Below, piece by piece: positions 50,140-63,733 of a stretch of DNA of 64,000 bases. The first letter of the stretch is position 1. Each line of letters starts with the position of its first letter. Position numbers and translations under genes: made by a program. The stretch comes from Patescibacteria group bacterium (GTDB taxonomy: Bacteria; Patescibacteriota; Doudnabacteria; UBA920; VMFF01), in contig JBBTQQ010000005.1 of the NCBI GenBank assembly GCA_038065615.1, forward strand, positions 7,984 to 71,983, read 5' to 3'. The notes beneath the pieces were generated by a model that did no database searches, was not told where the DNA came from, and saw nothing but the letters and a program-made list of their open reading frames with translations.

Positions 50140-50190
50140 AAATAATTCCGGTTCCCCCGGTTTTTATTTAAGTTGAAATTAGGAGGATGC

Positions 50191-50865
50191 GTGAAATCAT
50201 ATTTAAAACAAAAGGCAATACAACTGCGCAAAGAAGGTTGGTCATACAGCGTTATCCAAAAAAGAACAGGGATATCTAAGAGCACCCTTAGTAATTGGCT
50301 TGGTAATTTACCGTACAGACCAAACTTAGAAGTTAGAAAGAGCATAAAAGAAGGACCGTTGCGTTCTGCTATTATGCGCAGAAAAGCTAAGATCAGGAGT
50401 ATAAGAGAGATTAAAATAGCTGCAGCAAAAGAATTAGGTAAGCTTTCCAAAAGAGATAAGTGGATGTTAGGTTTGGCTATTTATATGGGTGAAGGTTCAA
50501 AGACTCATGATAATATTAGGGTTGTAAACTCAAACCCAGAAATAATTAAAAGTGCTGTTAAATGGTTTAGTAATAATTGTGATGTGCCATTAGCTAATCT
50601 CGCTATTAGGGTCCATTCATATCCTGATATAGACCAAGACAAGACTAAAGTATATTGGTCAGGAGTTACTGGTATACCCTTAAGCCAGTTTTTTAAAAAT
50701 CATATAGATACCAGGACAAACAAATCAGTTTTGAAAAAACGTAAATTGCAATATGGGACTGCCCATTTAATAATCAAGAGTTGTGGAAAAATAAAATTTG
50801 GGGTAATCTTACATAGAAGAATTATGGGCTGGATACAAGAAGCCTATAAACAAATGCGGGTATAG
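50191..50865 (+). CDS. HTH plus LAGLIDADG-like (single-motif) putative homing endonuclease, between two tRNA genes
   Basis: AGGAGG RBS 4 nt before GTG; N-terminal HTH (SVIQKRTGISKSTLSNWL), WMLGLAIYMGEGSK resembles a LAGLIDADG motif; 3' end overlaps tRNA-Gly by 10 nt. Confidence 0.4.
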   Translation: MKSYLKQKAIQLRKEGWSYSVIQKRTGISKSTLSNWLGNLPYRPNLEVRKSIKEGPLRSAIMRRKAKIRSIREIKIAAAKELGKLSKRDKWMLGLAIYMGEGSKTHDNIRVVNSNPEIIKSAVKWFSNNCDVPLANLAIRVHSYPDIDQDKTKVYWSGVTGIPLSQFFKNHIDTRTNKSVLKKRKLQYGTAHLIIKSCGKIKFGVILHRRIMGWIQEAYKQMRV

Positions 50866-50929: not shown

Positions 50930-51047
50930 AATATCGGTTAATTTAGATTGCGGAAGATCTGCATTTTTTATCCACAAGAATTTTTGGTTATCCTCATTGA
51001 CCACACAAAAATATTTTTGTTAAACTCCTCATACGGGAGGAAATATT

Positions 51048-51464
51048 ATGCCAGAAGTAACAGAGAAAATAAGGACAATATTTAGAGAAGAAGGCGTTCG
51101 TTTAATTGAGCCTTTAAGTAAGGCTATTCAAAGAACGCAGGACGATATCTTGTATATCAAAAATGACGTCTCAGGTTTGAAGGGTGACGTCTCAAGTCTT
51201 AAGAGTGATGTTTCGGGTCTCAAGAGTGATATGTCAGGTGTTAAGGTAGATATTTCGTATCTAAAAAGTGACATGTCGGATGTCAAAGATGATGTTACTG
51301 GGATTCGAGAAGTTGTTGATAGTCACACGGTTACACTTGATGGAATGGCTGGTTCTTTGGAAATCATGAGAACAGAGTTATCGGTAAGCAAATATAGACT
51401 GGATCGCCATGAGGGATGGATTAGTAAACTAGCTGAAAAGACCAAGCTCAAGCTTAGTCATTAA
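51048..51464 (+). CDS. small coiled-coil protein with seven tandem heptad repeats (DVSGLKG-type)
   Basis: Seven 21-bp DNA repeats at 51165-51311 encode DVSGLKG/DVSSLKS/...; paralog of the 59437 and 59938 genes. Confidence 0.5.
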   Translation: MPEVTEKIRTIFREEGVRLIEPLSKAIQRTQDDILYIKNDVSGLKGDVSSLKSDVSGLKSDMSGVKVDISYLKSDMSDVKDDVTGIREVVDSHTVTLDGMAGSLEIMRTELSVSKYRLDRHEGWISKLAEKTKLKLSH

Positions 51465-51509
51465 CATGGGGTAGTGTTATCAGAGCGTTGCCAGAGTTTT
51501 TTAGGAAGT

Positions 51510-51565
51510 GTAATATTTATTTACAAACGCCACACCCAGCCCGCAAGGGTCCGGTGTGGTTTTTG
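51510..51565 (+). repeat. 55-bp conserved terminator element, copy 1
   Basis: GTAATATTTATTTACAAACGCCACACCCAGCCCGCAAGGGTCCGGTGTGGTTTTT; 7-bp stem, GCAA tetraloop hairpin, T-run; near-identical to 60358-60413. Confidence 0.7.
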
Positions 51566-53203: not shown

Positions 53204-53270
53204 GGAGTAAGCTTTAAATTAACAAAGTTTTTGTTGCACTTCAGATTAGAATTTATGTAGTGGTCGCGTG

Positions 53271-53300
53271 TTGACCTAGTCTGTATAAGTAGGGTATAAT
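53271..53300 (+). promoter_or_regulatory. promoter TTGACC-17-TATAAT containing the conserved CTAGTCTGTATAAG box, copy 1
   Basis: TTGACCTAGTCTGTATAAGTAGGGTATAAT; 27/30 identical to the copy at 53945-53974. Confidence 0.6.
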
Positions 53301-53322
53301 ACGAACAACTAAAAAAGTATAT

Positions 53323-53640
53323 ATGACAAAATTACATAAAATTTTTAGAGTTATATATCCCGCTAAACACCCAGAGGAACTTATTAAAGAATATAATATT
53401 CCTCGTACTTTGCATTTACAAATACGTCTTACTAAAGACGGCTGGTTTGTTGCGTCTGTTCCAGAACTTCCAGGTTTAATTACTCAAGCACAAACTCAAC
53501 ATGAATTACTAGATATGGTTAATGACGCGGTTTTAACTTATTTTGATGTACCAAAAAGACAAGCTGATATAATTTACGATCAATTGAATATTCAAGGAGT
53601 CCCAGCAGTCCAATATGAGGCTCAATTACGAACTACTTAA
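53323..53640 (+). CDS. HicB-like antitoxin (UPF0150 fold)
   Basis: DGWFVASVPELPGLITQAQTQHELLDMVNDAVLTYF matches HicB/UPF0150 pattern. Confidence 0.6.
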   Translation: MTKLHKIFRVIYPAKHPEELIKEYNIPRTLHLQIRLTKDGWFVASVPELPGLITQAQTQHELLDMVNDAVLTYFDVPKRQADIIYDQLNIQGVPAVQYEAQLRTT

Positions 53641-53646
53641 ATTTCA

Positions 53647-53904
53647 ATGGGAGAGTATAATTTCAATAAAAGACAATGCTTACAAGCATTAAAAAAATTA
53701 GGTTTTTTTGAGGGAAGCAAGCGCAGAGGTATTCATGATAAATATTATCCTCCCAAAAGAATAGCCGAAAATCTGACTTCTGAGAAAGCCCCTTTTATAA
53801 TGATACCTAGGCATAACGAGTTGCATATCCAAACGGAAATTATCAAAGAGATTAAGGCTATGGGTGGTGATGATTTGGTAGAACAATTTAAAAAATATTT
53901 ATAA
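53647..53904 (+). CDS. HicA-like mRNA interferase toxin
   Basis: 85 aa; LKKLGFFEGSKRRGIHDKYY and FIMIPRHNELHIQTEIIKEIKAMG resemble HicA (YcfA) motifs. Confidence 0.5.
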   Translation: MGEYNFNKRQCLQALKKLGFFEGSKRRGIHDKYYPPKRIAENLTSEKAPFIMIPRHNELHIQTEIIKEIKAMGGDDLVEQFKKYL

Positions 53905-53944
53905 TAGAACCGCTATAAATCAAATAAGCGGTTTTATAGTTTTG

Positions 53945-53974
53945 TTGATCTAGTCTGTATAAGCAGGGTATAAT
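53945..53974 (+). promoter_or_regulatory. promoter TTGATC-17-TATAAT with conserved CTAGTCTGTATAAG box, copy 2
   Basis: TTGATCTAGTCTGTATAAGCAGGGTATAAT. Confidence 0.6.
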
Positions 53975-54002
53975 TTAAACAAGTATTAAGCTAATTTTAG
54001 CT

Positions 54003-54350
54003 ATGTCCAGATTTATTCAAAGAATACAATCTTATTTGGCTACTCCGGCACAAGCCCAAGAAAAGATCACTCATTTATTGATTGAGCTTCGTCATCGTGG
54101 GTTGACTTTTGATATTAGCTTAGAAAATGAAGATGGACAAAAATTCTTTTATGCAAAATCCATAGATTATCCAAAGGGTTATATTTCTGCTACTGGTCAA
54201 ACTACGGAAGAATTAGAAAGTGAATTAAAGGACGCGATTTTTACAGCCTTTGAAGTTCCAGCAAGATTTTGCATTTCTGAACTAATTGTTTTCAATCCTC
54301 CTGTCTCACAGGTAGCTACTGCAAACCAGAAAGTATATGCTACCATCTAG
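54003..54350 (+). CDS. second HicB-like antitoxin
   Basis: FYAKSIDYPKGYISATGQTTEELESELKDAIFTAFEV fits the UPF0150/HicB pattern. Confidence 0.5.
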   Translation: MSRFIQRIQSYLATPAQAQEKITHLLIELRHRGLTFDISLENEDGQKFFYAKSIDYPKGYISATGQTTEELESELKDAIFTAFEVPARFCISELIVFNPPVSQVATANQKVYATI

Positions 54351-54694: not shown

Positions 54695-54723
54695 TTGACA
54701 AGAACCTATAAAGATTATATAAT
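54695..54723 (+). promoter_or_regulatory. perfect consensus sigma70 promoter TTGACA-17-TATAAT
   Basis: TTGACA 54695-54700, 17-nt spacer, TATAAT 54718-54723; about 470 nt upstream of the giant surface-protein gene. Confidence 0.55.
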
Positions 54724-55194: not shown

Positions 55195-58100
55195 ATGCAA
55201 ACCTCTTTAGCAAAGAAAATCTTTGCAATAGGTTCAACTTCAGCCATGTTGTTAGCTGCTGTCCCTTTTGTGGCTTCAGCTGCAGTTCACTCTGCCGGAA
55301 CAAACGTCGTTTCTAACGGAACCGTTTATTTCGTCAACAGCAATGGTCAGAAACAACCTTACACTTCAGCTGGTGCATTTTTGTCCTATGGTTTTAACAC
55401 CTGGGCAGATGTAGTAGCAGCTTCCGCTGAGGATATGGCTTTGCCTACTGGCTCATTCGTTCCTCCATCAGATGGTTCCCTTATCAATGATAAAGGCACT
55501 GTATATTTGATGGTTAACGGAATGCCATCAGGCTTTACTACAGAACCAAACTTCTTAGGCTCAGGCTATTCTTACAAGAATGTCTTGGCTGGTGATGTTT
55601 CCTTCTTAGCAAAAGGCTCAAATATCAGCACAACAGCAATGTCCCACCCAGTTGGTACATTAGTAAACGACAAAGGTACTGTTTACTTAATGACAGCATC
55701 TGGAAAAATGGGCATTCCTTCTCTTTCAACATTTAATTCTTGGGGCTATAGCTTCGCAAAAGTCGTTCCTGCAAACAGCTACGACTCAGCAGTTTCTATG
55801 AGCTCTGGAATTATGAATGCAAGAGTTGTCGGACAATTGAACCCAACAGGTTCAACAGTCAACATTCCTCCAGTATCTGGAACTCTATCTGTAAGCGCAG
55901 CTTCAGATATGCCAGTTACTAGAGCAGTGGTCTCTACTGAAGGCGTAGCAGACTTAGCACACTTTACCTTCTATGGTACAGGTGCAGTTACAAGCCTTTC
56001 CTTAAAGAGATTCGGCGTTTCAGCTGATACCTCTTTGAATAACGTTTACCTCTTTGATTCAAATGGAACAAGACTTACAGATGGAGCATCAGTTTCATCT
56101 GGAAGCATTGTTAACTTTAACAATCCAAATGGATTGTTTACTGTCAGTGGTTCAAAGACCATTTATGTAAAAGCTGATATGAATGGTACAGCAGGTGAAA
56201 CAATTGGTGTTCAACTTACTTCTGCTATGAGCGGCTCAGTCGCAGTTAGCGGCGGAACAGTTTCCAGCAATTTGTTCACAGTAGCTACAGCTACATTAGC
56301 TGGCGTAGCCCTTTCATCAGCAACTGGTTCAGGCAACACTGATCCAGGCGTAGCAATCAGCGTCTGGCAAGGTACAGCAACTGTATCAACCAGAGACGTA
56401 TTGATGACCCGCTTGGCATTGCGCCAACTTGGTTCTATTGTTTCAACTGACATTAAGAACTTCACCCTTTATGTAGACGGTGTTCAGGTTGCTACAACAG
56501 CAGCTTTGGATTCCAATGGCTATGTGACTTTCACAATGAGCCAGGCATTAAAGTCAGGTGCAAGAGTTTTGAAGGTAACTGCTGATGTAATTGGCGGTTC
56601 CGGCAGAACAGTTCAAATGTCTTTCCGTGGTGCTTATGACCTTTCAGTGACTGATACTCAGTACAATGCAGGTGTCGTAGCAACCGGTACTTTCCCATTT
56701 GGTCCATCAGCATTCACAGTTAACAATGGTTCAATGACAGTTGTTAAAACAACTGACTCACAGGCTACTAACGTAACTGTCGGTGCTTCAGATCAAGCAT
56801 TGGCTAAGTACACCTTTACCGCTTATGGTGAAGCAATCAAAGTTAGCACCTTGAACGTTGGTATGATTACCAACGGTACTCCTGCTAACGTCACTATCCG
56901 TAATACCCGCCTGTTGTTAACCAACAGTGGCACAACCGGACAGGTTGGTAGCACCTTAAGCGTTCCTGCGGCAGCTTCTTTTGCTGCAGCTGCAGGTACT
57001 GCATTCACCACAAACTTCACTGTTAATCCTGGTGCTCCCGCAACTGTTGAAATCCGCGGCGACATCTATGACAATGAAGGCGCAGATGATATCGCAGCAT
57101 TAACGGTTACTACAATACAGGGATTGTTGGTCGGCGGTACAGCTACCAGCAACGCTACCCCACAAGTTTCTCTAGGAACCCTTAATGTTCCATCCCAGAC
57201 CAATGTTTTGGGTAACAACCTAACCATTGCTTCTGGTTCATTGAGCATTGCTAAAACATCAACATATGCAAACCAGACTGTTGTTGTTCCAGCAACCACA
57301 TACAAGATCGGTTCATTTGTCTTAACAGGCAATGCAACCGAAGCAGTTAACTTAAACACCCTTTATGTTGGTTTTGCTGATACTACATTAGATGCAGCTC
57401 CTGCAACTGATTTGACAGACCTTTACGTCAAATACGGTAGCAACCAAACAACTGTTAAAGGGACTGTGACTTGTACTTACAGCGCTGGTTGTAGCAACGC
57501 AAACTCTTGGTCAATTAACACCACATTGGCTGTTAACCAGACCATGCAATTTGATGTCTACGCAACCATTGCTTCATCTCTAAGCACTAACCAGTTAATC
57601 CCTACATTGGCTGTAGCAGGTACAACCGCTCAGTCAGGTATTGCTGTCTACGCTGACGGCACATCTAACACTTCGTTGGATGCAGGATTCTCAGGTCAGC
57701 AAATTACAGGTGGCACAGGTACAATTACAGCATCTCTTGATGCAAGTACTCCAAATTCAACGATTGTTGATGATTCTGGTACAATCACATCTGCCGTTTA
57801 CAAATTCCAATCTGCAAACGACAGCTACACAATCACTGACTTAACTGTCACCTTAGGCGATGCTTCTGCTGTTTCAACAGTAACATTGCTTGATGGTAAT
57901 GGTTCACCGATTACCGGTGGTTCCTTGCCAGGCGCAACAACCGTTGCTTTCCATGGCTTGAACATCGCAGTCGCAGCAAATGCAACTGTTCTTGTCCAAG
58001 TACAATTGACAATGGGTGCAGTTGGCTTTGGCGCAGGTACTTCTAATGCTTCTTTGTTGACCACAATGACTGTGGCAACAGCTAGAAACTCAGCAGGTAC

Positions 58101-59241
58101 TTCAGCAGGCGCAACAGGTGTTGGTTCTGGTATTGCAGGAAACGTCATGTACGTTTACCATGCAATTCCTACTATCACTAACGTTGCTTTGCCATCAACA
58201 GTGCTAACAGCTGGTGGCAGTACTCAAACCTTGTCGAAATTCACTATTTCTTCAGGTGGTACTGGCGCAATCGGTTGGCAAAAGTTAGTCTTTACCGTTG
58301 CAAAGAATGTCAGCGGCGTAGACACTTTGGCCACCCCAACTTTGTGGAATACTGATTCCAATACTCAAATTACTGGAACAGCAGTATTCACAGGCGCTGT
58401 TAACGTTAACGATGACACTGCTGGTGGAATTGTCTTCGTAGCAAACAGCGAGCAAGCAGTCAGCGGCTCAAAGACCTATGAGTTGAGAGCTACTGTTGGC
58501 GGTGCTCCTGTAGCAGGCGATAGCTTGACAGTTAACATTGCACAGCCTTCAACTTACTCAATAAACAAAACAGCATTCGCATATAACGCTGGCACAGGTG
58601 CCAACCTATATGTTGCTGATGTTGATGCTGATGCAACTATAAGTGCAAATGATATTCGTGAATCAGTACAATCAAGCTACACAGCAGCTGATGTAACATT
58701 AGGTGTAACAACCACTGGTGGTACATTTAGTCAAAAACTTCAACAGTCATATGCAGTGACTGGTACTGTTACTCTAACCATGGTTGAAGGTGCAACAGAT
58801 AACACTGTTGGCGCAGCTACATTTACTGTAGGTGGCGCAGGTGCTTCTGACTTAGTCTGTACCCCATACACAGGCGTAAGCGGTACTGGCGCAGTAGTAG
58901 TTGGTACAACCTTGTTCTCTGCTGTCCAGTCCATTGTTTGTACTGGAACAAACAAGCAGTTGAAATTGTTTAGCATTGTTGTCACAGTTGACAGTGATGT
59001 TGCAGCTGGTGGTACATTTGGCTTAGTTACAATTAGCAAAGGTACTGACTATGCTGTCGGTTCTACTGTTGCTGCAACTGATTCTGACTTTGGCTTAGCT
59101 TTGACTGCCGGCGTTGTCGGCTCTGCAAGCTTTGTCTGGTCAGACCAGTCTGCACAGTCTCATGCTTCAACAACAGCTGACTGGGCTAACGACTACTTGG
59201 TAAAGACTTTACCAACAGTCACGCAATCTCTCGTAAGATAA
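55195..59241 (+). CDS. giant secreted surface protein (S-layer/adhesin-like), Thr/Ser/Gly/Ala/Val-rich with three N-terminal ~45-aa repeats
   Basis: Signal peptide, repeats of GTVYxxxNGxxxxxTSxxxFxSxGYSF, then about 1100 aa of beta-rich low-complexity sequence; GGAG RBS. Confidence 0.7.
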   Translation: MQTSLAKKIFAIGSTSAMLLAAVPFVASAAVHSAGTNVVSNGTVYFVNSNGQKQPYTSAGAFLSYGFNTWADVVAASAEDMALPTGSFVPPSDGSLINDKGTVYLMVNGMPSGFTTEPNFLGSGYSYKNVLAGDVSFLAKGSNISTTAMSHPVGTLVNDKGTVYLMTASGKMGIPSLSTFNSWGYSFAKVVPANSYDSAVSMSSGIMNARVVGQLNPTGSTVNIPPVSGTLSVSAASDMPVTRAVVSTEGVADLAHFTFYGTGAVTSLSLKRFGVSADTSLNNVYLFDSNGTRLTDGASVSSGSIVNFNNPNGLFTVSGSKTIYVKADMNGTAGETIGVQLTSAMSGSVAVSGGTVSSNLFTVATATLAGVALSSATGSGNTDPGVAISVWQGTATVSTRDVLMTRLALRQLGSIVSTDIKNFTLYVDGVQVATTAALDSNGYVTFTMSQALKSGARVLKVTADVIGGSGRTVQMSFRGAYDLSVTDTQYNAGVVATGTFPFGPSAFTVNNGSMTVVKTTDSQATNVTVGASDQALAKYTFTAYGEAIKVSTLNVGMITNGTPANVTIRNTRLLLTNSGTTGQVGSTLSVPAAASFAAAAGTAFTTNFTVNPGAPATVEIRGDIYDNEGADDIAALTVTTIQGLLVGGTATSNATPQVSLGTLNVPSQTNVLGNNLTIASGSLSIAKTSTYANQTVVVPATTYKIGSFVLTGNATEAVNLNTLYVGFADTTLDAAPATDLTDLYVKYGSNQTTVKGTVTCTYSAGCSNANSWSINTTLAVNQTMQFDVYATIASSLSTNQLIPTLAVAGTTAQSGIAVYADGTSNTSLDAGFSGQQITGGTGTITASLDASTPNSTIVDDSGTITSAVYKFQSANDSYTITDLTVTLGDASAVSTVTLLDGNGSPITGGSLPGATTVAFHGLNIAVAANATVLVQVQLTMGAVGFGAGTSNASLLTTMTVATARNSAGTSAGATGVGSGIAGNVMYVYHAIPTITNVALPSTVLTAGGSTQTLSKFTISSGGTGAIGWQKLVFTVAKNVSGVDTLATPTLWNTDSNTQITGTAVFTGAVNVNDDTAGGIVFVANSEQAVSGSKTYELRATVGGAPVAGDSLTVNIAQPSTYSINKTAFAYNAGTGANLYVADVDADATISANDIRESVQSSYTAADVTLGVTTTGGTFSQKLQQSYAVTGTVTLTMVEGATDNTVGAATFTVGGAGASDLVCTPYTGVSGTGAVVVGTTLFSAVQSIVCTGTNKQLKLFSIVVTVDSDVAAGGTFGLVTISKGTDYAVGSTVAATDSDFGLALTAGVVGSASFVWSDQSAQSHASTTADWANDYLVKTLPTVTQSLVR

Positions 59242-59436
59242 TTGCGTTAGTCTAGAAGCTTTGTTAAAGCTGAACTTTTCTAGAAGTCTAAACTAGATCA
59301 AAAGACCGCCCAACCAGGGCGGTCTTTTGTATTGTGTATAAGTTAAAACAAGAGAGTAGATTAACCAGCTATTAAACTTTTTGACCTCCCTTTCATATCT
59401 GCGCTACAATAACCCTCCAACAATATTAATTGAAGT

Positions 59437-59721
59437 TTGTTTATGGATACAGAAACAAAAAAGGAGTTTGAGAAGATAAGCTCAGAGTTTAAGACAATGA
59501 ATCTTGAATTCAGGAAAATAGATCAAAGATTTGATCAGGTTGATAATGATATATCCCTAGTATTAATGACTGTGAGTAAAACATATGAAGAACTGGAAAT
59601 AGAGGTTAAATCAATCAATGCTCATATGGTAACCAAAGACTATCTTGATCGCCGTTTAGAGAGATTTGTTAGTACAAACAAGCTTTTGTTAAGAGAAGAA
59701 GGACCTGATTACAAGGTTTAA
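59437..59721 (+). CDS. small coiled-coil protein, heptad-repeat family paralog (short repeat tract)
   Basis: Shares 5' UTR CCAACAATATTAATTG and C-terminal MVTKDYLDRRLERF..LLLREEGPDYKV with 59938 gene. Confidence 0.5.
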   Translation: MFMDTETKKEFEKISSEFKTMNLEFRKIDQRFDQVDNDISLVLMTVSKTYEELEIEVKSINAHMVTKDYLDRRLERFVSTNKLLLREEGPDYKV

Positions 59722-59937
59722 TTTGGTGCGCTTAAAAGCGCTGATGCAAAGTGGACTACTTTAGAACGAGTTTTTAAAAAAGCTGTGCTTGTCGAAAAAC
59801 AAGAACCAGGAGCTGAAACAAAAAAACCAAGAAAGAACTAAAACAAGCGAATAGATTAACTATATATTAAATATTTTGACTTTAGTTTTAGATCTAGGAT
59901 ACAATAACTTTCCAACAATATTAATTGGAGTTCGTTT

Positions 59938-60324
59938 ATGGATATTGAGACCAAAAGAGAGTTTGAAAAGATAGGTCTTCAATTAGACCAAAAGTTTAAA
60001 GACGTGGATAAACGGTTCGAGAAGGTAGACAAGAGGTTTGAGCAAATAGACAAGAGATTCGAGAAGGTAGACAAGAGGTTTGAAAAAGTTGATCAGAGGT
60101 TTGAGAATTTGGAAAACATCATGATCAAAGGGTTTAACAGGGTGGACGAAGAAATTGCTTTAGTTTTAAGAACAATGAATGCATTTTCAACAGCCATGGA
60201 AACAGAAATCAAAGCAATGAACAGCCGGATGGTAACCAAAGACTATCTTGATCGTCGTTTAGAAAGATTTGCCAGTGCAAACCATCTTTTGTTGAGAGAT
60301 GAAGGACCTGATTACAAGGTTTGA
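59938..60324 (+). CDS. small coiled-coil protein, heptad-repeat family paralog with five VDKRFEK repeats
   Basis: Five tandem 21-bp repeats at 60004-60108; conserved C-terminus with the 59437 gene. Confidence 0.5.
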   Translation: MDIETKREFEKIGLQLDQKFKDVDKRFEKVDKRFEQIDKRFEKVDKRFEKVDQRFENLENIMIKGFNRVDEEIALVLRTMNAFSTAMETEIKAMNSRMVTKDYLDRRLERFASANHLLLRDEGPDYKV

Positions 60325-60357
60325 TTTGCCATGTGTTGACAGGGCTATTTGGACGTG

Positions 60358-60413
60358 GTAATATTTAATTACAAACGCCACACCCAGCCCGCAAGGGTCC
60401 GGTGTGGTTTTTT
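60358..60413 (+). repeat. 55-bp conserved terminator element, copy 2 (embedded in a TTGACA-17-TAATAT promoter-like context)
   Basis: One mismatch vs copy 1; TTGACA at 60335-60340 and TAATAT at 60358-60363. Confidence 0.7.
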
Positions 60414-60427
60414 TAGAAAGAAATAAA

Positions 60428-61003
60428 ATGAAAACAATATTGTATGTAGACGGAAGAAATTTCTTGGGCAAATTGGAAGAAGTCTTTAAGACAGAAAAAA
60501 AGCTAAGACCTGAATGGCATAAGTACAATTTCAAAAGTCTTTTAGACCAAGTATTAAAAGGGTTAAATGTTGATAGTAAAATCTTTTACTTTGCAAAGAT
60601 AAAAGAACATCCTGATACTAAAGAAAAATCCCAAGAATTAATTAAGGCTAGAAGATTACTGAAAACACATTTAGAGCAGCAAGGTTTCCAAGTTATTCTG
60701 ACTGGTGTCGTAAGGGGTAATTATAATCAAGATGGGGTTCTGGTTTTCAAAGAAAAAGGTGTAGATATTAGTATTGCAGTAGACATGGTCAGTGCCGCTT
60801 GTGCTAAATCAATGGCAATAGCCATACTCGCAAGTTCTGATTCTGACTTACAGCCAGCAATTCGTGAGATCACAAAGAGAGGTATTGAGTGTATTTATTT
60901 AGGGTTCGAGCTAATGCCCAACAAAGGACTGGCTTCTACCACGAAACGTACAATACTAATCAGAAACTCCGAAGTTCTACAATTTAATTCCGCATTGATC
61001 TAA
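60428..61003 (+). CDS. NYN-domain (LabA-like) putative ribonuclease
   Basis: MKTILYVDGRNF start, KGVDISIAVDM and ILASSDSDLQP motifs of PF01936. Confidence 0.7.
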   Translation: MKTILYVDGRNFLGKLEEVFKTEKKLRPEWHKYNFKSLLDQVLKGLNVDSKIFYFAKIKEHPDTKEKSQELIKARRLLKTHLEQQGFQVILTGVVRGNYNQDGVLVFKEKGVDISIAVDMVSAACAKSMAIAILASSDSDLQPAIREITKRGIECIYLGFELMPNKGLASTTKRTILIRNSEVLQFNSALI

Positions 61004-61006
61004 TAA

Positions 61007-61035
61007 TAAGACCGCCTAAACTGGCGGTTTTATTA
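61007..61035. terminator. rho-independent terminator
   Basis: AAGACCGCCTAAACTGGCGGTTTTATT. Confidence 0.55.
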
Positions 61036-61116
61036 TAAAATAAAGATTTGCCATGCCATTGAAAAAAACAGTAATCTTTGGTAATATTACATTTGTACTT
61101 TGTGTTTTAAACACAT

Positions 61117-61193: not shown

Positions 61194-61420
61194 TAGTAGA
61201 TACAGAAGAAGAAATAGAATTGATATAATGGACTGCCACAAGGGCAGTCCATTAATTTACCCATACATTACTTATCCTGCTTGTAACACAGTCCCGACCC
61301 ATTTAGTAAATACTCTAAAAAGCCTTTATTATCCGTAATAAACAGGTGTTTGACTTCTCTATATCATTAGAGTAGTATAGTAAATGATATTACTATATCA
61401 CCCCAAAAGGATACAAAAAT

Positions 61421-62854
61421 ATGGACGAGATTCTTAAATACGTACAAAACCAGCTAGTACAAGCCCCTTTCCGGCTCAAGTCCTATGTCCAGGACGAGCA
61501 GGGTAGGAAATATCCGCAAAGAAATATCTACGTCAAAGTTGATAAATACTTCCGGGATTTTTTGCATAACTCAAAAGCTCAGGATCGCTGGATCATAATC
61601 CCGGGTCTTCGTGGCGTCGGTAAAACCACCATCCTTGCACAGCTTTTCTTAAATCATTACCAAGAAGTCAGCGACCGTAGAATACTCTATGTTTCGTTGG
61701 ATGAAGTAGTGGATGTTCTCGGATCGTCATTGAAAGATGTTTTGACTGCATACGAAAAGATAATCGGTGAAAGTTTTGAAAAACTCACTAAACCAGTCTT
61801 TATATTTATTGACGAAGCACAATACGATCCCAAGTGGGCATCAGTATTAAAGTCTGTGTACGATCGGTCAAACAAAGTTTTTGTTGCATGCAGTGGCTCA
61901 TCAGCTGTTTCCTTGCAGACCAATCCGGATGTCATTCGCCGTTCTATTTTTCTGAAACTCTTTCCAACGAGCTTCACTGAATTCTTAATGATTCGTGATG
62001 GCAAACTACCAACTAAGGGTTTGAAACAAAATATAAAAGACGCGTTGTTTAATGCTGACTCTGCTAAAGATGCTTACGAAAAGCTAAAAAAATATGAGCA
62101 AAGCATAGTGAGTGCTTGGTCATCCATTGACCGTCACTATGTTGATGAATATTTGAAAATCGGTACTTTACCATTTGCTATCCGAATGAAAGATGAAGTG
62201 CGTGTGTATCAAACAATTAATTTGCTTTTAGACAAAGTGATTAATCAGGACGTTCAAAGTCTCGGTCGTTTTGATACCAAGACCCTTATCTACATCAAGA
62301 GGGTGCTATTTCTGCTTGCCGAGTCTGATGTAGTGAGTATTCAGAAACTTGCCACAATGCTTGAGGCTAGCATCAACACCGTTTCAAATATACTTGAGGT
62401 TTTGGAGCAAGCCGAGCTGCTCATTCGTGTTATGCCCTATGGTTCAAATTCCAAAAAAGTCAGAAAGCCTTCACGTTACCAGTTTATGTCTAGTGCAATG
62501 CGGTCGGCATTTCTCTCGGTTGCTGGTAATGAGCAGATTTTTGCTGACCAGAAGGGCAGACTCATGGAGGATATTGTTGCAATGACATTGTATCGGGAGT
62601 TCGTGGTCAATAGTCGAGGTGCTTTAAATTATGACAGCGCAAAGGCTGGCTCAGATTTCATTCTAACGATTGCCGGTAAGAACATTATTCCGATTGAAGT
62701 TGGGATGGGTGAGAACCTTGGCACACAAGTCCGAAACACCATGAAAAAGGTTGGATCAGCCAAGTACGGCGTGGTGATCTGCAAAAACTCGCTTGCATTA
62801 CTGGAGGATGCCAATGTAGTTAAAGTCCCGTTAGATTACTTTTTGTTAATGTAA
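61421..62854 (+). CDS. AAA+ ATPase of the COG1373/DUF4143 type
   Basis: P-loop IIPGLRGVGKTT, Walker B IFIDEAQY, C-terminal DUF4143-like region; commonly found in mobile/defence islands. Confidence 0.7.
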   Translation: MDEILKYVQNQLVQAPFRLKSYVQDEQGRKYPQRNIYVKVDKYFRDFLHNSKAQDRWIIIPGLRGVGKTTILAQLFLNHYQEVSDRRILYVSLDEVVDVLGSSLKDVLTAYEKIIGESFEKLTKPVFIFIDEAQYDPKWASVLKSVYDRSNKVFVACSGSSAVSLQTNPDVIRRSIFLKLFPTSFTEFLMIRDGKLPTKGLKQNIKDALFNADSAKDAYEKLKKYEQSIVSAWSSIDRHYVDEYLKIGTLPFAIRMKDEVRVYQTINLLLDKVINQDVQSLGRFDTKTLIYIKRVLFLLAESDVVSIQKLATMLEASINTVSNILEVLEQAELLIRVMPYGSNSKKVRKPSRYQFMSSAMRSAFLSVAGNEQIFADQKGRLMEDIVAMTLYREFVVNSRGALNYDSAKAGSDFILTIAGKNIIPIEVGMGENLGTQVRNTMKKVGSAKYGVVICKNSLALLEDANVVKVPLDYFLLM

Positions 62855-62859
62855 CATTT

Positions 62860-63051
62860 ATGTCAACGAAAATCGTCGCCAAAACTAAAAAAGATACCTA
62901 CTACAAATGTACTCATTGTGGAGATGAGATTTTTTGGAATACCCATAAAAAATTCACCTACTGCAAGTGCAAGAAAATTTGGATTGATGGTTGCGAGGAT
63001 TACGTCCGAGTTGGTGGTAATAAAGAAGATTATGTAGTGATTCACAAATAA
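62860..63051 (+). CDS. small Cys-rich (zinc-ribbon-like) protein
   Basis: 63 aa; CTHCGDE...YCKCKK...DGCED. Confidence 0.4.
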   Translation: MSTKIVAKTKKDTYYKCTHCGDEIFWNTHKKFTYCKCKKIWIDGCEDYVRVGGNKEDYVVIHK

Positions 63052-63053
63052 CT

Positions 63054-63452
63054 ATGCGCAAAAAAGCTAAAACCAGAATTAAAATCAATAATCCACTCCA
63101 AGCATCCGGACGCAGGCTTTTTGACGATGAAAAGGGCGCTGCAAGTATTGTTTTTGAAATAGAGTCAAAACAGCAAATCCTTAAACAGCGGAAAGAGATT
63201 GAGCAGGAGCTCGTGGATATGCTCAAAGAAACAGAGAGCGATTTTTCACTGCAGGATGTGCAGGATGTCATTTTTCACGAAGAAGACAACGACGACATGA
63301 TGAAGATCATAGCCATGTTTGACCATGTCAGAGACGCTTCGGAATTAAACAATGTTCTTGAACTTGTTACGGACGCTTGGAATTACTTTCCGCATAAGGT
63401 TCTTGGTGGCATTTCTCCAGCCGAGAAACTATTAGAGTATAAAAGCACATAA
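63054..63452 (+). CDS. hypothetical acidic protein
   Basis: 132 aa ORF immediately after the zinc-ribbon ORF. Confidence 0.35.
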   Translation: MRKKAKTRIKINNPLQASGRRLFDDEKGAASIVFEIESKQQILKQRKEIEQELVDMLKETESDFSLQDVQDVIFHEEDNDDMMKIIAMFDHVRDASELNNVLELVTDAWNYFPHKVLGGISPAEKLLEYKST

Positions 63453-63733
63453 GGTATTTGCTTAACATTGTTGAAGTCAAGCAAACCGTCCGATGTTCTC
63501 AAATTTAGTTTTACAGCCCGGTCAGTATTGCAATGGGTACAAAGTTCGCTACAAGGTCAAACACACGGCAACAATCGAGGCGTTTGATTGGGAGTCAATA
63601 TGCTCTGGAACAAGGTCAGATTTTCTGCTAAAATTACTGTTGTAAAAGGTCTTTAATCTCTCGGATATTTCGGAGAATTAAGTTCCAATTCAATACTTTA
63701 ATCGGTACTGTTAAGGTTTACAAATGAATATGC

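Follow-up and report, generated by a model that had tools for sequence, protein, structure and literature searches.

Type III toxin–antitoxin (TA) systems such as ToxIN, CptIN and AbiQ/antiQ are laid out in the order promoter, short structured RNA, terminator and nuclease gene. In other systems the nuclease acts on an RNA structure in its own messenger: the leaders of the Escherichia coli rne and rnc genes are autoregulatory, and Regnase-1 (MCPIP1), a eukaryotic ribonuclease (RNase) of the NYN/PIN-like kind, targets its own mRNA. MCPIP1 is described as degrading mRNAs that contain stem-loops (PMC4958271). Here we analyze a 64,000-nucleotide stretch of DNA (the window) from a Patescibacteria group bacterium (GenBank assembly GCA_038065615.1, contig JBBTQQ010000005.1, positions 7,984 to 71,983), in which a 78-nt element containing a strong hairpin stands once behind each of two genes, g1 and g3, for small coiled-coil proteins; a third such gene, g2, lies just upstream of g3. 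A sequence-only reading of this DNA had taken the three genes to be paralogs, each followed by the same terminator and lying next to a defense island and a giant surface-protein gene. We find that the element is a predicted σ70-type promoter together with the 5' leader hairpin of a gene for an NYN-domain protein, and we consider it likely that the earlier reading merged two things into one: a pair of unrelated families of rod-like proteins around a surface-protein gene, and the promoter and leader of the NYN gene.

The NYN unit has its parts in the same order as a type III TA system. It differs from such systems in having a single hairpin with no tandem repeats, in encoding a protein of the PF01936 family rather than one with the ToxN/AbiQ fold, and in the broad conservation of the NYN protein. 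A type III identity was therefore rejected, as the features that define it, tandem antitoxin repeats and a ToxN/AbiQ-type toxin, are lacking. With the rne and rnc leaders and with Regnase-1, the unit shares a conserved stem-loop in a nuclease's own mRNA, near the coding sequence; the hairpin described here, which recurs in bacteria of the Candidate Phyla Radiation (CPR), differs in that it sits at the extreme 5' end of the predicted transcript, is followed by a run of U residues, spans only ~32 nt and is without a match in Rfam. Literature searches on NYN proteins in CPR bacteria, and on Saccharibacteria surface layers (S-layers) with coiled coils, returned nothing relevant.

Anatomy of the element

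The two copies of the element in the window (copy A behind g1 and copy B behind g3; Table 1) are 86% identical over 78 nt, and their last 42 nt are identical; none of 100 shuffles gave any match. The element had been noticed before as a shared 55-bp terminator with a GNRA tetraloop, and both the element and the loop are real, although the element is longer than had been supposed: the hairpin, which is closed by a GCAA loop, folds at −24.4 kcal/mol (z = −5.5), and it is preceded by a predicted σ70-type promoter of the form TTGACA-N17-TAATAT that agrees with the consensus at 10 of 12 positions and that in copy B has TG before the −10 hexamer. In all close copies of the element, TTGNCN and TA(A/G)(T/C)AT are separated by 17 nt of freely drifting sequence. 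The hexamers and the distance between them are retained by the eight close copies and by the distant loci L019, L022 and L023, with unrelated spacers, and in L021 the −35 hexamer is weak.

Six to eight nucleotides beyond the −10 hexamer comes the sequence (A/T)(C/T)AAACGC, followed by a hairpin made of an 8-bp outer stem, a 2 × 2 internal loop (YA/CC), a 3–4-bp inner stem and the GNRA loop, and then by the U-run, with which the 5' AAA is able to pair in the folds. The window copies have 5–7 U residues after the hairpin and thus the GC-rich hairpin and U-run of an intrinsic terminator, a feature that is not uniformly kept, since the U-run is interrupted in L021 (UUUCGCGUUU) and in L023 (UUUUCGUUAU). 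The position at which perfect identity between the window copies begins is that of the predicted transcript start in each (~51523 and ~60371).

Conservation of the hairpin upstream of NYN genes

The gene downstream of copy B encodes a protein of the NYN family that is predicted, from its domain match, to be a PIN-like RNase. This protein has 1741 homologs at E < 1e-10 and is 60–70% identical in lineages labelled Doudnabacteria, Wolfebacteria, Zambryskibacteria and Paceibacterota. The motif precedes the NYN gene in all CPR loci examined. It was found upstream of NYN in eight distinct loci, one of them held out; these include the distant loci L019/20, L021 and L022, in which, among four distant genes inspected, the same motif lies behind a promoter-like site. 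A covariance model (CM) built from eight copies of the motif matched the held-out Paceibacterota locus (L023–25) with an E-value of 2.4e-11. In 195 kb of DNA scanned with the model, the only matches of at least 47 bits were copies linked to NYN or orphan copies, and the next best match scored 16 bits. A second, different NYN paralog in L019 is without the motif.

Across 11 copies of the motif, 95.9% of the cells in the alignment of paired positions were paired, 6 of the 16 pairs showed double changes and none of 500 shuffles did as well; in controls in which the structure was slid along the alignment, 32–54% of cells were paired. All copies agree in having two G-U pairs, CC on one side of the internal loop, a GNRA loop and a 5' ACGC, which is extended to AAACGC in every copy except that of L023. 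On the opposite strand, these invariant G-U pairs would turn into A-C mismatches, so that the structure is strand-specific and acts as RNA rather than as DNA. The motif thus has the compensatory changes, the constant position relative to one gene family and the strand specificity of a conserved structured RNA. Searches of Rfam 15 gave nothing that reached the gathering score in any part of the window and nothing on the motif in five other loci; at permissive E-values the best match was weak (E 0.28) and fell on the opposite strand. A scan of genome contigs for the hairpin returned only the sister strain and one related metagenome-assembled genome, and matches this few indicate that the element is not a high-copy repeat of the repetitive extragenic palindromic (REP) kind or one resembling miniature inverted-repeat transposable elements (MITEs).

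Genomic contexts of the NYN unit

Comparison with related contigs shows that the element keeps company with NYN and not with the coiled-coil genes. In the window, the element, the NYN gene and a terminator hairpin together form an insertion of 722 bp flanked by an 11-bp direct repeat, of which the window holds two copies (none of 100 shuffles gave two). The closest relative is a syntenic contig of a sister strain, L001, that is ~88% identical to the window in nucleotide sequence and is also deposited within L005, an uncultured Candidatus Saccharibacteria genome assembly. The empty site of this strain contains a single GATTTGGCAT, and in three sister-strain contigs the stop codon of g3 is joined directly to the promoter region of the gene for tRNA-Arg. 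L004, L016 and L017/18 are arranged as g1, element, NYN and surface-protein gene, with the NYN start ~20 nt past the U-run. In L006/7 and L009–11 there is no NYN at this site, and g1 is followed by a different, ordinary terminator. In L012 (5060–5330), g1 has been lost from its −35 region to the −35 region of the element and NYN is reduced to a remnant of its ribosome-binding site; the element, left with neither gene, is intact and has two compensatory base-pair changes. A third genomic context is provided by L015 (889–1965), in which a complete NYN unit lies directly downstream of a gene of the Phage_integrase (tyrosine recombinase) family, and the homology between this unit and that of copy B has its exact limits at the −35 hexamer and the NYN terminator. 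Because these four comparisons tie the element to NYN and not to the coiled-coil genes, we take copy B to be the working 5' region of the NYN gene.

The most likely course of events would be that the ancestral order was g1, element, NYN and surface-protein gene; that the slot after g1 in the window came to be occupied by an AbiEi/AbiEii island, which would make copy A an orphan where NYN once sat; and that a complete NYN unit, with promoter, hairpin, coding sequence and terminator, was inserted after g3. Copy A, whose hairpin is the first strong one to follow g1, probably serves here as the terminator of g1 as well. The moved unit is unlike an integron cassette in that the element is at its 5' rather than its 3' end; a cassette array was not seen, and the junctions have the 11-bp repeat instead. 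Scans of viral contigs for the hairpin and for relatives of NYN gave no matches, and thus no sign of a phage origin.

The orphan copies also bear on whether the element might itself be a stand-alone RNA gene of ~42 nt, whose product would act in trans as a partner, decoy or inhibitor of NYN in a layout resembling that of type III TA systems. In most copies a consensus promoter lies 6–8 nt before the hairpin and a U-run directly after it, and the 42 nt that are identical in the window copies start at the predicted transcript start. Both hexamers and the structure are retained by the orphan copies of the window, L001 and L012, including the two compensatory pairs of L012, and the window orphan is 97% conserved against ~88% genome-wide, a persistence that an RNA acting in trans would explain. 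Such conservation is not predicted by a leader that functions purely in cis for NYN, though use as the g1 terminator could account for the hairpin part, and in this way the orphan copy can be explained without an RNA gene. There are, moreover, no tandem RNA repeats of the ToxI antitoxin type, NYN is not a sporadic toxin but a highly conserved CPR protein, apparently present in single copy, and read-through into NYN would be expected in L021 and L023, with their poor U-runs. We therefore regard a trans-acting RNA as unlikely, if the most credible of the alternatives to a cis-acting leader. Equally tentative is its broader form, in which promoter, hairpin and U-run would constitute a CPR-wide RNA gene of ~40 nt whose product complexes NYN as an inhibitor, guide or substrate mimic.

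The coiled-coil proteins form two families

The three small heptad-repeat genes are confirmed as open reading frames (ORFs), and Tandem Repeats Finder (TRF) detects period-21 arrays at 51157–51277 and 60014–60107 with 75–82% matches. Counts of seven, about one and five units had been given for g1, g2 and g3; the first two hold, and g3 has six units in frame. The units of g1 read KNDVSGL, KGDVSSL, KSDVSGL, KSDMSGV, KVDISYL, KSDMSDV and KDDVTGI, and those of g3 read DQKFKDV, DKRFEKV, DKRFEQI, DKRFEKV, DKRFEKV and DQRFENL. Both ends of g1 are conserved (N-terminus MPEVTEKIR..., C-terminus ...YRLDRHEGWISKLAEKTKLKLSH); in g3 the N-terminus is MDxETKxEFEKI and the C-terminus MVTKDYLDRRLERF...EGPDYKV. 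For g2, comparison with homologs favors the ATG at 59443 over the TTG at 59437 as the start; its ortholog P0014, also of 92 aa, begins at the same Met. Each of the three genes has a promoter-like site of its own. A hairpin in the g1 leader that would sequester the Shine–Dalgarno sequence was considered and dropped, its 5' arm overlapping the predicted −10 hexamer.

BLASTP aligns g2 with g3 at 8e-32, with a gap that exactly spans the heptads. The two genes have in common, as had been noted, their 5' leader, within a block of promoter, leader and N-terminus that is 80% identical over 135 nt (59344–59478 versus 59839–59973), and their C-terminal parts are 83% identical over 132 nt. Judged by these alignments, g2 and g3 are tandem duplicates, promoter and leader included. 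The common leader also contains an inverted repeat (window 59906–59940; L001 10470–10497; CTCCAA...TTGGAG in L001), which overlaps the likely ribosome-binding site and might modulate translation. Between g1 and g3, in contrast to g2 and g3, BLASTP found no alignment at E ≤ 100. Alignments built from database relatives, A2 for g1 and A3 for g2/g3, gave a probability of 0.3% when compared profile to profile with hhalign. By these measures g1 (family A) and g2/g3 (family B) are unrelated families with only their architecture in common, and the proposed paralogy of all three stands for g2 and g3 and falls for g1.

That the proteins belong to no recognized family was borne out. None of the three matched a curated Pfam or NCBIfam model at its cut-off, and what appeared below was coiled-coil noise such as LPP, DUF16 and SlaB; in PHROGs, which has no curated cut-offs, matches were restricted to the heptads (for example, phrog_937, hemolysin, E 6e-4). 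Sequence and profile searches of the Protein Data Bank (PDB) with the coiled-coil proteins gave generic coiled coils only, and a Foldseek search of the PDB with the g1 model gave no match, a result that is uninformative for a single helix. AlphaFold2 (AF2) models consist of one continuous helix, covering residues 2–137 of g1 with a predicted local distance difference test score (pLDDT) of 91.7 and residues 3–114 of g3 with a pLDDT of 84. Reading of the sequences revealed no signal peptide and no hydrophobic or membrane segment in proteins of either family. Among 1.8 billion representative proteins, just 10 are related to the 70-aa C-terminal part of g3 at E < 1e-3; they are short, starting with MDxExKxEFEK and ending with MVTKDYLDxKLxxFAxxNxLxxREEGPxY. 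Orthologs of g1 have 152, 159, 152 and ~181 aa. A homolog of g1 in L004 (6993–7493, minus strand) has a TGA in place of the Trp codon (TGG) that all other members conserve, 15 codons upstream of the usual stop; it could be a truncation, a sequencing error or a site of read-through.

With Lpp, the gp26-class tail needle, DUF16, XhlA and SlaB the proteins share canonical heptads and the form of a variable-length rod, with weak similarity that is limited to the repeats and scores that are all under the curated cut-offs. Phage XhlA (PF10779) homology, which had been named as a finding that would explain the repeats, is absent from the Pfam matches of g1, g2 and g3 even at E ≤ 10, the only trace being phrog_937; XhlA would be expected to have a C-terminal membrane helix, whereas g1–g3 have no hydrophobic segment and the g1 and g3 models are continuous helices. 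Lpp (PF04728) scores 23.5 bits against g1 (cut-off 29.1), and the g1 N-terminus (MPEVTEKIRTIF...) is without a signal peptide, Cys or lipobox. Mycoplasma DUF16 (PF01519) scores 21.1 bits against g3 (cut-off 40). A tail needle of the phage P22 gp26 class (4lin) shows weak similarity within the repeats (E 0.0037). Sulfolobus SlaB (NF040788) reaches 27 bits (E 1.8e-6) against a cut-off of 700, with only the coiled-coil part of the model matched; the Sec signal, C-terminal membrane anchor and full-length match that characterize SlaB are not found in these proteins, and what recalls the SlaA/SlaB arrangement is that the coiled-coil genes adjoin a surface-layer-like gene. Unlike the known heptad rods, families A and B have conserved terminal parts that are unique to small clades. 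Each protein, predicted as a single long α-helix with canonical a/d heptads, most likely assembles into homo-oligomeric coiled-coil rods.

Variation in heptad number

Variation in repeat number, which had been predicted for these genes, is present between strains. Relative to the window, L001 has two more heptads in g1 (152 versus 138 aa) and three fewer in g3 (107 versus 128 aa), and a single heptad, QRFDGID, is the exact difference between the proteins P0003 (127 aa) and P0004 (134 aa). In P0122 and L004, other heptad types (HTxILDx and DLSGVHS/DISGIHE) are expanded within family A. The protein parts that flank the arrays are conserved between strains. Between the window and L001, the codon differences comprise 16 synonymous and 4 non-synonymous in g3, and 15 synonymous and 12 non-synonymous, with 14 gapped codons, in g1, which shows purifying selection on both genes outside the indels.

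Close strains that differ in unit number, and by whole units only, together with a 26-nt exact internal repeat in g3, could point to contingency loci, in which slipped-strand mispairing would cause frequent changes in length within a population and thereby phase or antigenic variation. This we hold to be improbable: the units of the arrays are just 75–82% identical in DNA, g1 has no exact repeat longer than 10 nt, the 107-aa form of g3 is encoded by each of three independent contigs from a single aquifer well (L001–L003), and the coiled-coil proteins are without an export signal. Because the units have diverged in DNA, the exact repeats are short and one length of g3 was found at one site, the heptad arrays are read as a case of evolutionary plasticity rather than of rapid phase variation. 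On this account the central array would gain and lose whole 21-bp units in frame, with heptad types expanding by lineage and the ends conserved, and rod length would be evolutionarily plastic, at ~1 nm per heptad.

The surface-protein gene and its neighbors

The gene between g1 and g2 encodes a secreted protein of 1348 aa that has no sequence match in Pfam or the PDB, and it is preceded by a promoter that matches the consensus perfectly and by a 5' leader of ~470 nt that is conserved in L004, L006, L009, L012 and L017. Related contigs have orthologs of it, of 1313–1339 aa, that sit between g1 and a g3-type gene. About 30% of its residues differ from those of the sister-strain protein (401 non-synonymous and 323 synonymous codon differences), and its neighbors are far more similar between the two strains. 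Together, this suggests an abundant, diversifying surface-layer protein, an identity that we infer. The gene would be highly expressed and fast-evolving, and the families A and B that flank it would form separate transcription units; a strong bidirectional terminator (59299–59329) separates it from g2.

Eight related Saccharibacteria contigs encode a secreted protein of ~1,330 aa with g1 on one side and a g3-type gene on the other. The full order in L001, L004, L006/7 and L009–11 is nusB, a Lys-rich 180-aa protein, HU, transfer RNA (tRNA) genes, g1, the surface-protein gene, the g3-type gene, tRNA genes, an HTH_17 gene and holA; it is partial in L012, L016 and L017. From this conserved gene order only, an envelope or surface-protein role is inferred for the coiled-coil rods, and the missing export signals speak against their being stalks directly, in the manner of SlaB or Lpp. 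The module between g1 and the surface-protein gene contains AbiEii (72.6 bits, Pfam), a weak AbiEi and other small ORFs, and occurs in the window and the sister strain only. As the AbiE island is strain-specific, the conserved neighbor is the giant surface protein and not the defense island, and only the former of the two associations drawn earlier is upheld. A reading of L017 as having AbiE after NYN was discarded, as BLAST shows that the ORF concerned is the start of the surface-protein gene.

Three further features were observed in this region. A 43-nt promoter block (TTGAyC-N18-TATAAT) is duplicated at 53269–53311 and 53943–53985, before ORF modules at 53323–53904 and 54003–54350+; the ORF pairs at 53323–54350 look by eye like HicB/HicA, that is, toxin–antitoxin-like, but match nothing in Pfam or NCBIfam and were left unnamed. 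An insertion of ~2.5 kb (61194–63714) with an AAA_14/DUF4143 ATPase gene and two small ORFs lies between the genes for tRNA-Arg and tRNA-Lys and is absent from three sister-strain contigs, in which the two tRNA genes are adjacent. Finally, a 230-aa ORF with an HTH_23 domain (50173–50865) lies between the genes for tRNA-Pro and tRNA-Gly; it is present in L001, L006 and L012 and absent in L009 and L017, and, with a LAGLIDADG-like GLAIYMGEGSK seen by eye, it may be a free-standing gene of the homing-endonuclease type.

Table 1 Positions of the main features in the window
Feature	Position	Strand	Description	Basis
Element copy A (orphan)	51487–51564	+	−35 51488–51493 TTGCCA; −10 51511–51516 TAATAT	CM 82.8 bits
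Copy A, predicted transcript	start ~51523; hairpin 51529–51560; U-run 51560–51564	+		Consensus-based prediction
Element copy B	60335–60412	+	−35 60336–60341 TTGACA; −10 60359–60364 TAATAT	CM 78.2 bits
Copy B, predicted transcript	start ~60371; hairpin 60377–60408; then U-run	+		Consensus-based prediction
NYN-domain (PF01936) protein gene	60428–61003	+	191 aa	Pfam 52.3 bits against cut-off 24.2, residues 3–171
NYN-unit terminator hairpin	61011–61028	.	ACCGCC...GGCGGT	Conserved in L015
NYN insertion	60334–61055		722 bp: element, NYN gene and terminator	
Left 11-bp direct repeat	60323–60333	+	GATTTGCCATG; flanks NYN insertion	
Right 11-bp direct repeat	61045–61055	+	Flanks NYN insertion	
g1	51048–51464	+	138 aa, all-helical coiled coil, family A	ORF
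g1 heptad array	51159–51305	+	7 × 21 bp, KxDVSGL type	In-frame units
g1 candidate promoter	50997–51026	+	TTGACC-N18-TAAACT, 9/12 positions	Consensus scan only (weak)
g2	59443–59721	+	92 aa, coiled coil, family B, ~1 heptad	ORF
g2 predicted promoter	59381–59410	+	TTGACC-N18-TACAAT; duplicated along with the gene	Consensus-based prediction
g3	59938–60324	+	128 aa, coiled coil, family B	ORF
g3 heptad array	59986–60111	+	6 × 21 bp, DKRFEKV type	TRF and in-frame units
g3 predicted promoter	59876–59905	+	TTGACT-N18-TACAAT	Consensus-based prediction
Surface-protein gene	55195–59241	+	1348 aa, secreted, N-terminal signal-like segment	ORF
Surface-protein gene promoter	54695–54723	+	TTGACA-N17-TATAAT	12/12 consensus positions

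Discussion

As the most likely mechanism, the hairpin, which would begin just a few nucleotides into the NYN transcript and has a U-run after it, would limit or tune expression of NYN. It would be recognized by a protein, most plausibly by NYN itself in a feedback loop; otherwise it might control the stability of the transcript or its termination. We propose specific recognition because, over phylum-level distances, the stem covaries but the two G-U pairs, the YA/CC loop and the GNRA loop do not change. In each of five folds, neither the NYN start codon nor the region of ribosome binding is sequestered.

A GC-rich stem with a U-run at a gene boundary, and one that in copy A is the first strong hairpin after g1, is also what an ordinary intrinsic terminator or 5' stabilizer would look like, and the hairpin might be conserved by descent with no specific recognition. 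We think this very improbable, as ordinary terminators do not keep a loop, an internal loop, G-U pairs and a 5' AAACGC while the stem covaries and the NYN proteins are only 60–70% identical, and as in L023 the upstream gene has its own terminator, with a promoter (TTGACA-N16-TATACT) between that terminator and the motif. The idea that the three coiled-coil genes form a single paralogous family, every member having the same terminator of its own, and are tied to defense and surface loci draws on the shared architecture of a short N-terminus, heptads and a helical C-terminus and on the presence of the element after two of the three genes, but can hardly be maintained given that g1 has no detectable homology to g3, that g2 has no copy of the element, that g3 orthologs in three contigs lack it, that g1 orthologs in five contigs have another terminator, and that the element, which moves together with the NYN gene, is found in L012, L015 and L019–L023 with no coiled-coil gene.

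Several points weigh against our interpretation of the element as the promoter and leader of NYN, and against the association of the rods with the surface protein. The motif is represented by only 11 copies from ~7 independent lineages, the Saccharibacteria copies being close relatives. Two exact scans of metagenomes of the Joint Genome Institute (JGI) for the Saccharibacteria-type pattern gave no matches, the breadth of the motif beyond that type being left unsampled by such scans. The promoter and the transcript start are predictions based on consensus sequences. The weak U-runs of L021 and L023 mean that attenuation by termination may not be the conserved function, and the orphan copies keep promoter-like hexamers, with copy A showing just 2 differences in 78 nt from that of the sister strain. 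As for the rods, L016 is without a g3-type gene after the surface-protein gene and L012 is without g1, and the coiled-coil proteins have no export signal, no evidence of a partner and no operon link to the surface-protein gene.

The finding in the sequence-only reading is real as sequence and mis-assembled as biology: a repeated intergenic element beside genes that look alike proved to be a relic of the movement of a third gene, which is a caution for reading from sequence alone. The previously undescribed leader RNA is more useful than the coiled-coil part, which is modestly interesting; there, the order of rod, giant surface protein and rod, together with changing heptad numbers, marks the rods as candidate components of the Saccharibacteria envelope, by gene order alone. 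The leader is a short RNA motif, supported by covariation and tied to one of the more conserved CPR proteins, that could enter RNA family databases and so make annotation better. Were its RNA to act in trans, it would be part of a previously undescribed two-part RNA–protein module in CPR RNA metabolism. Most CPR bacteria have not been cultured and almost nothing is known of how their genes are regulated, and the hairpin upstream of NYN offers a testable handle on the biology of the NYN nuclease.

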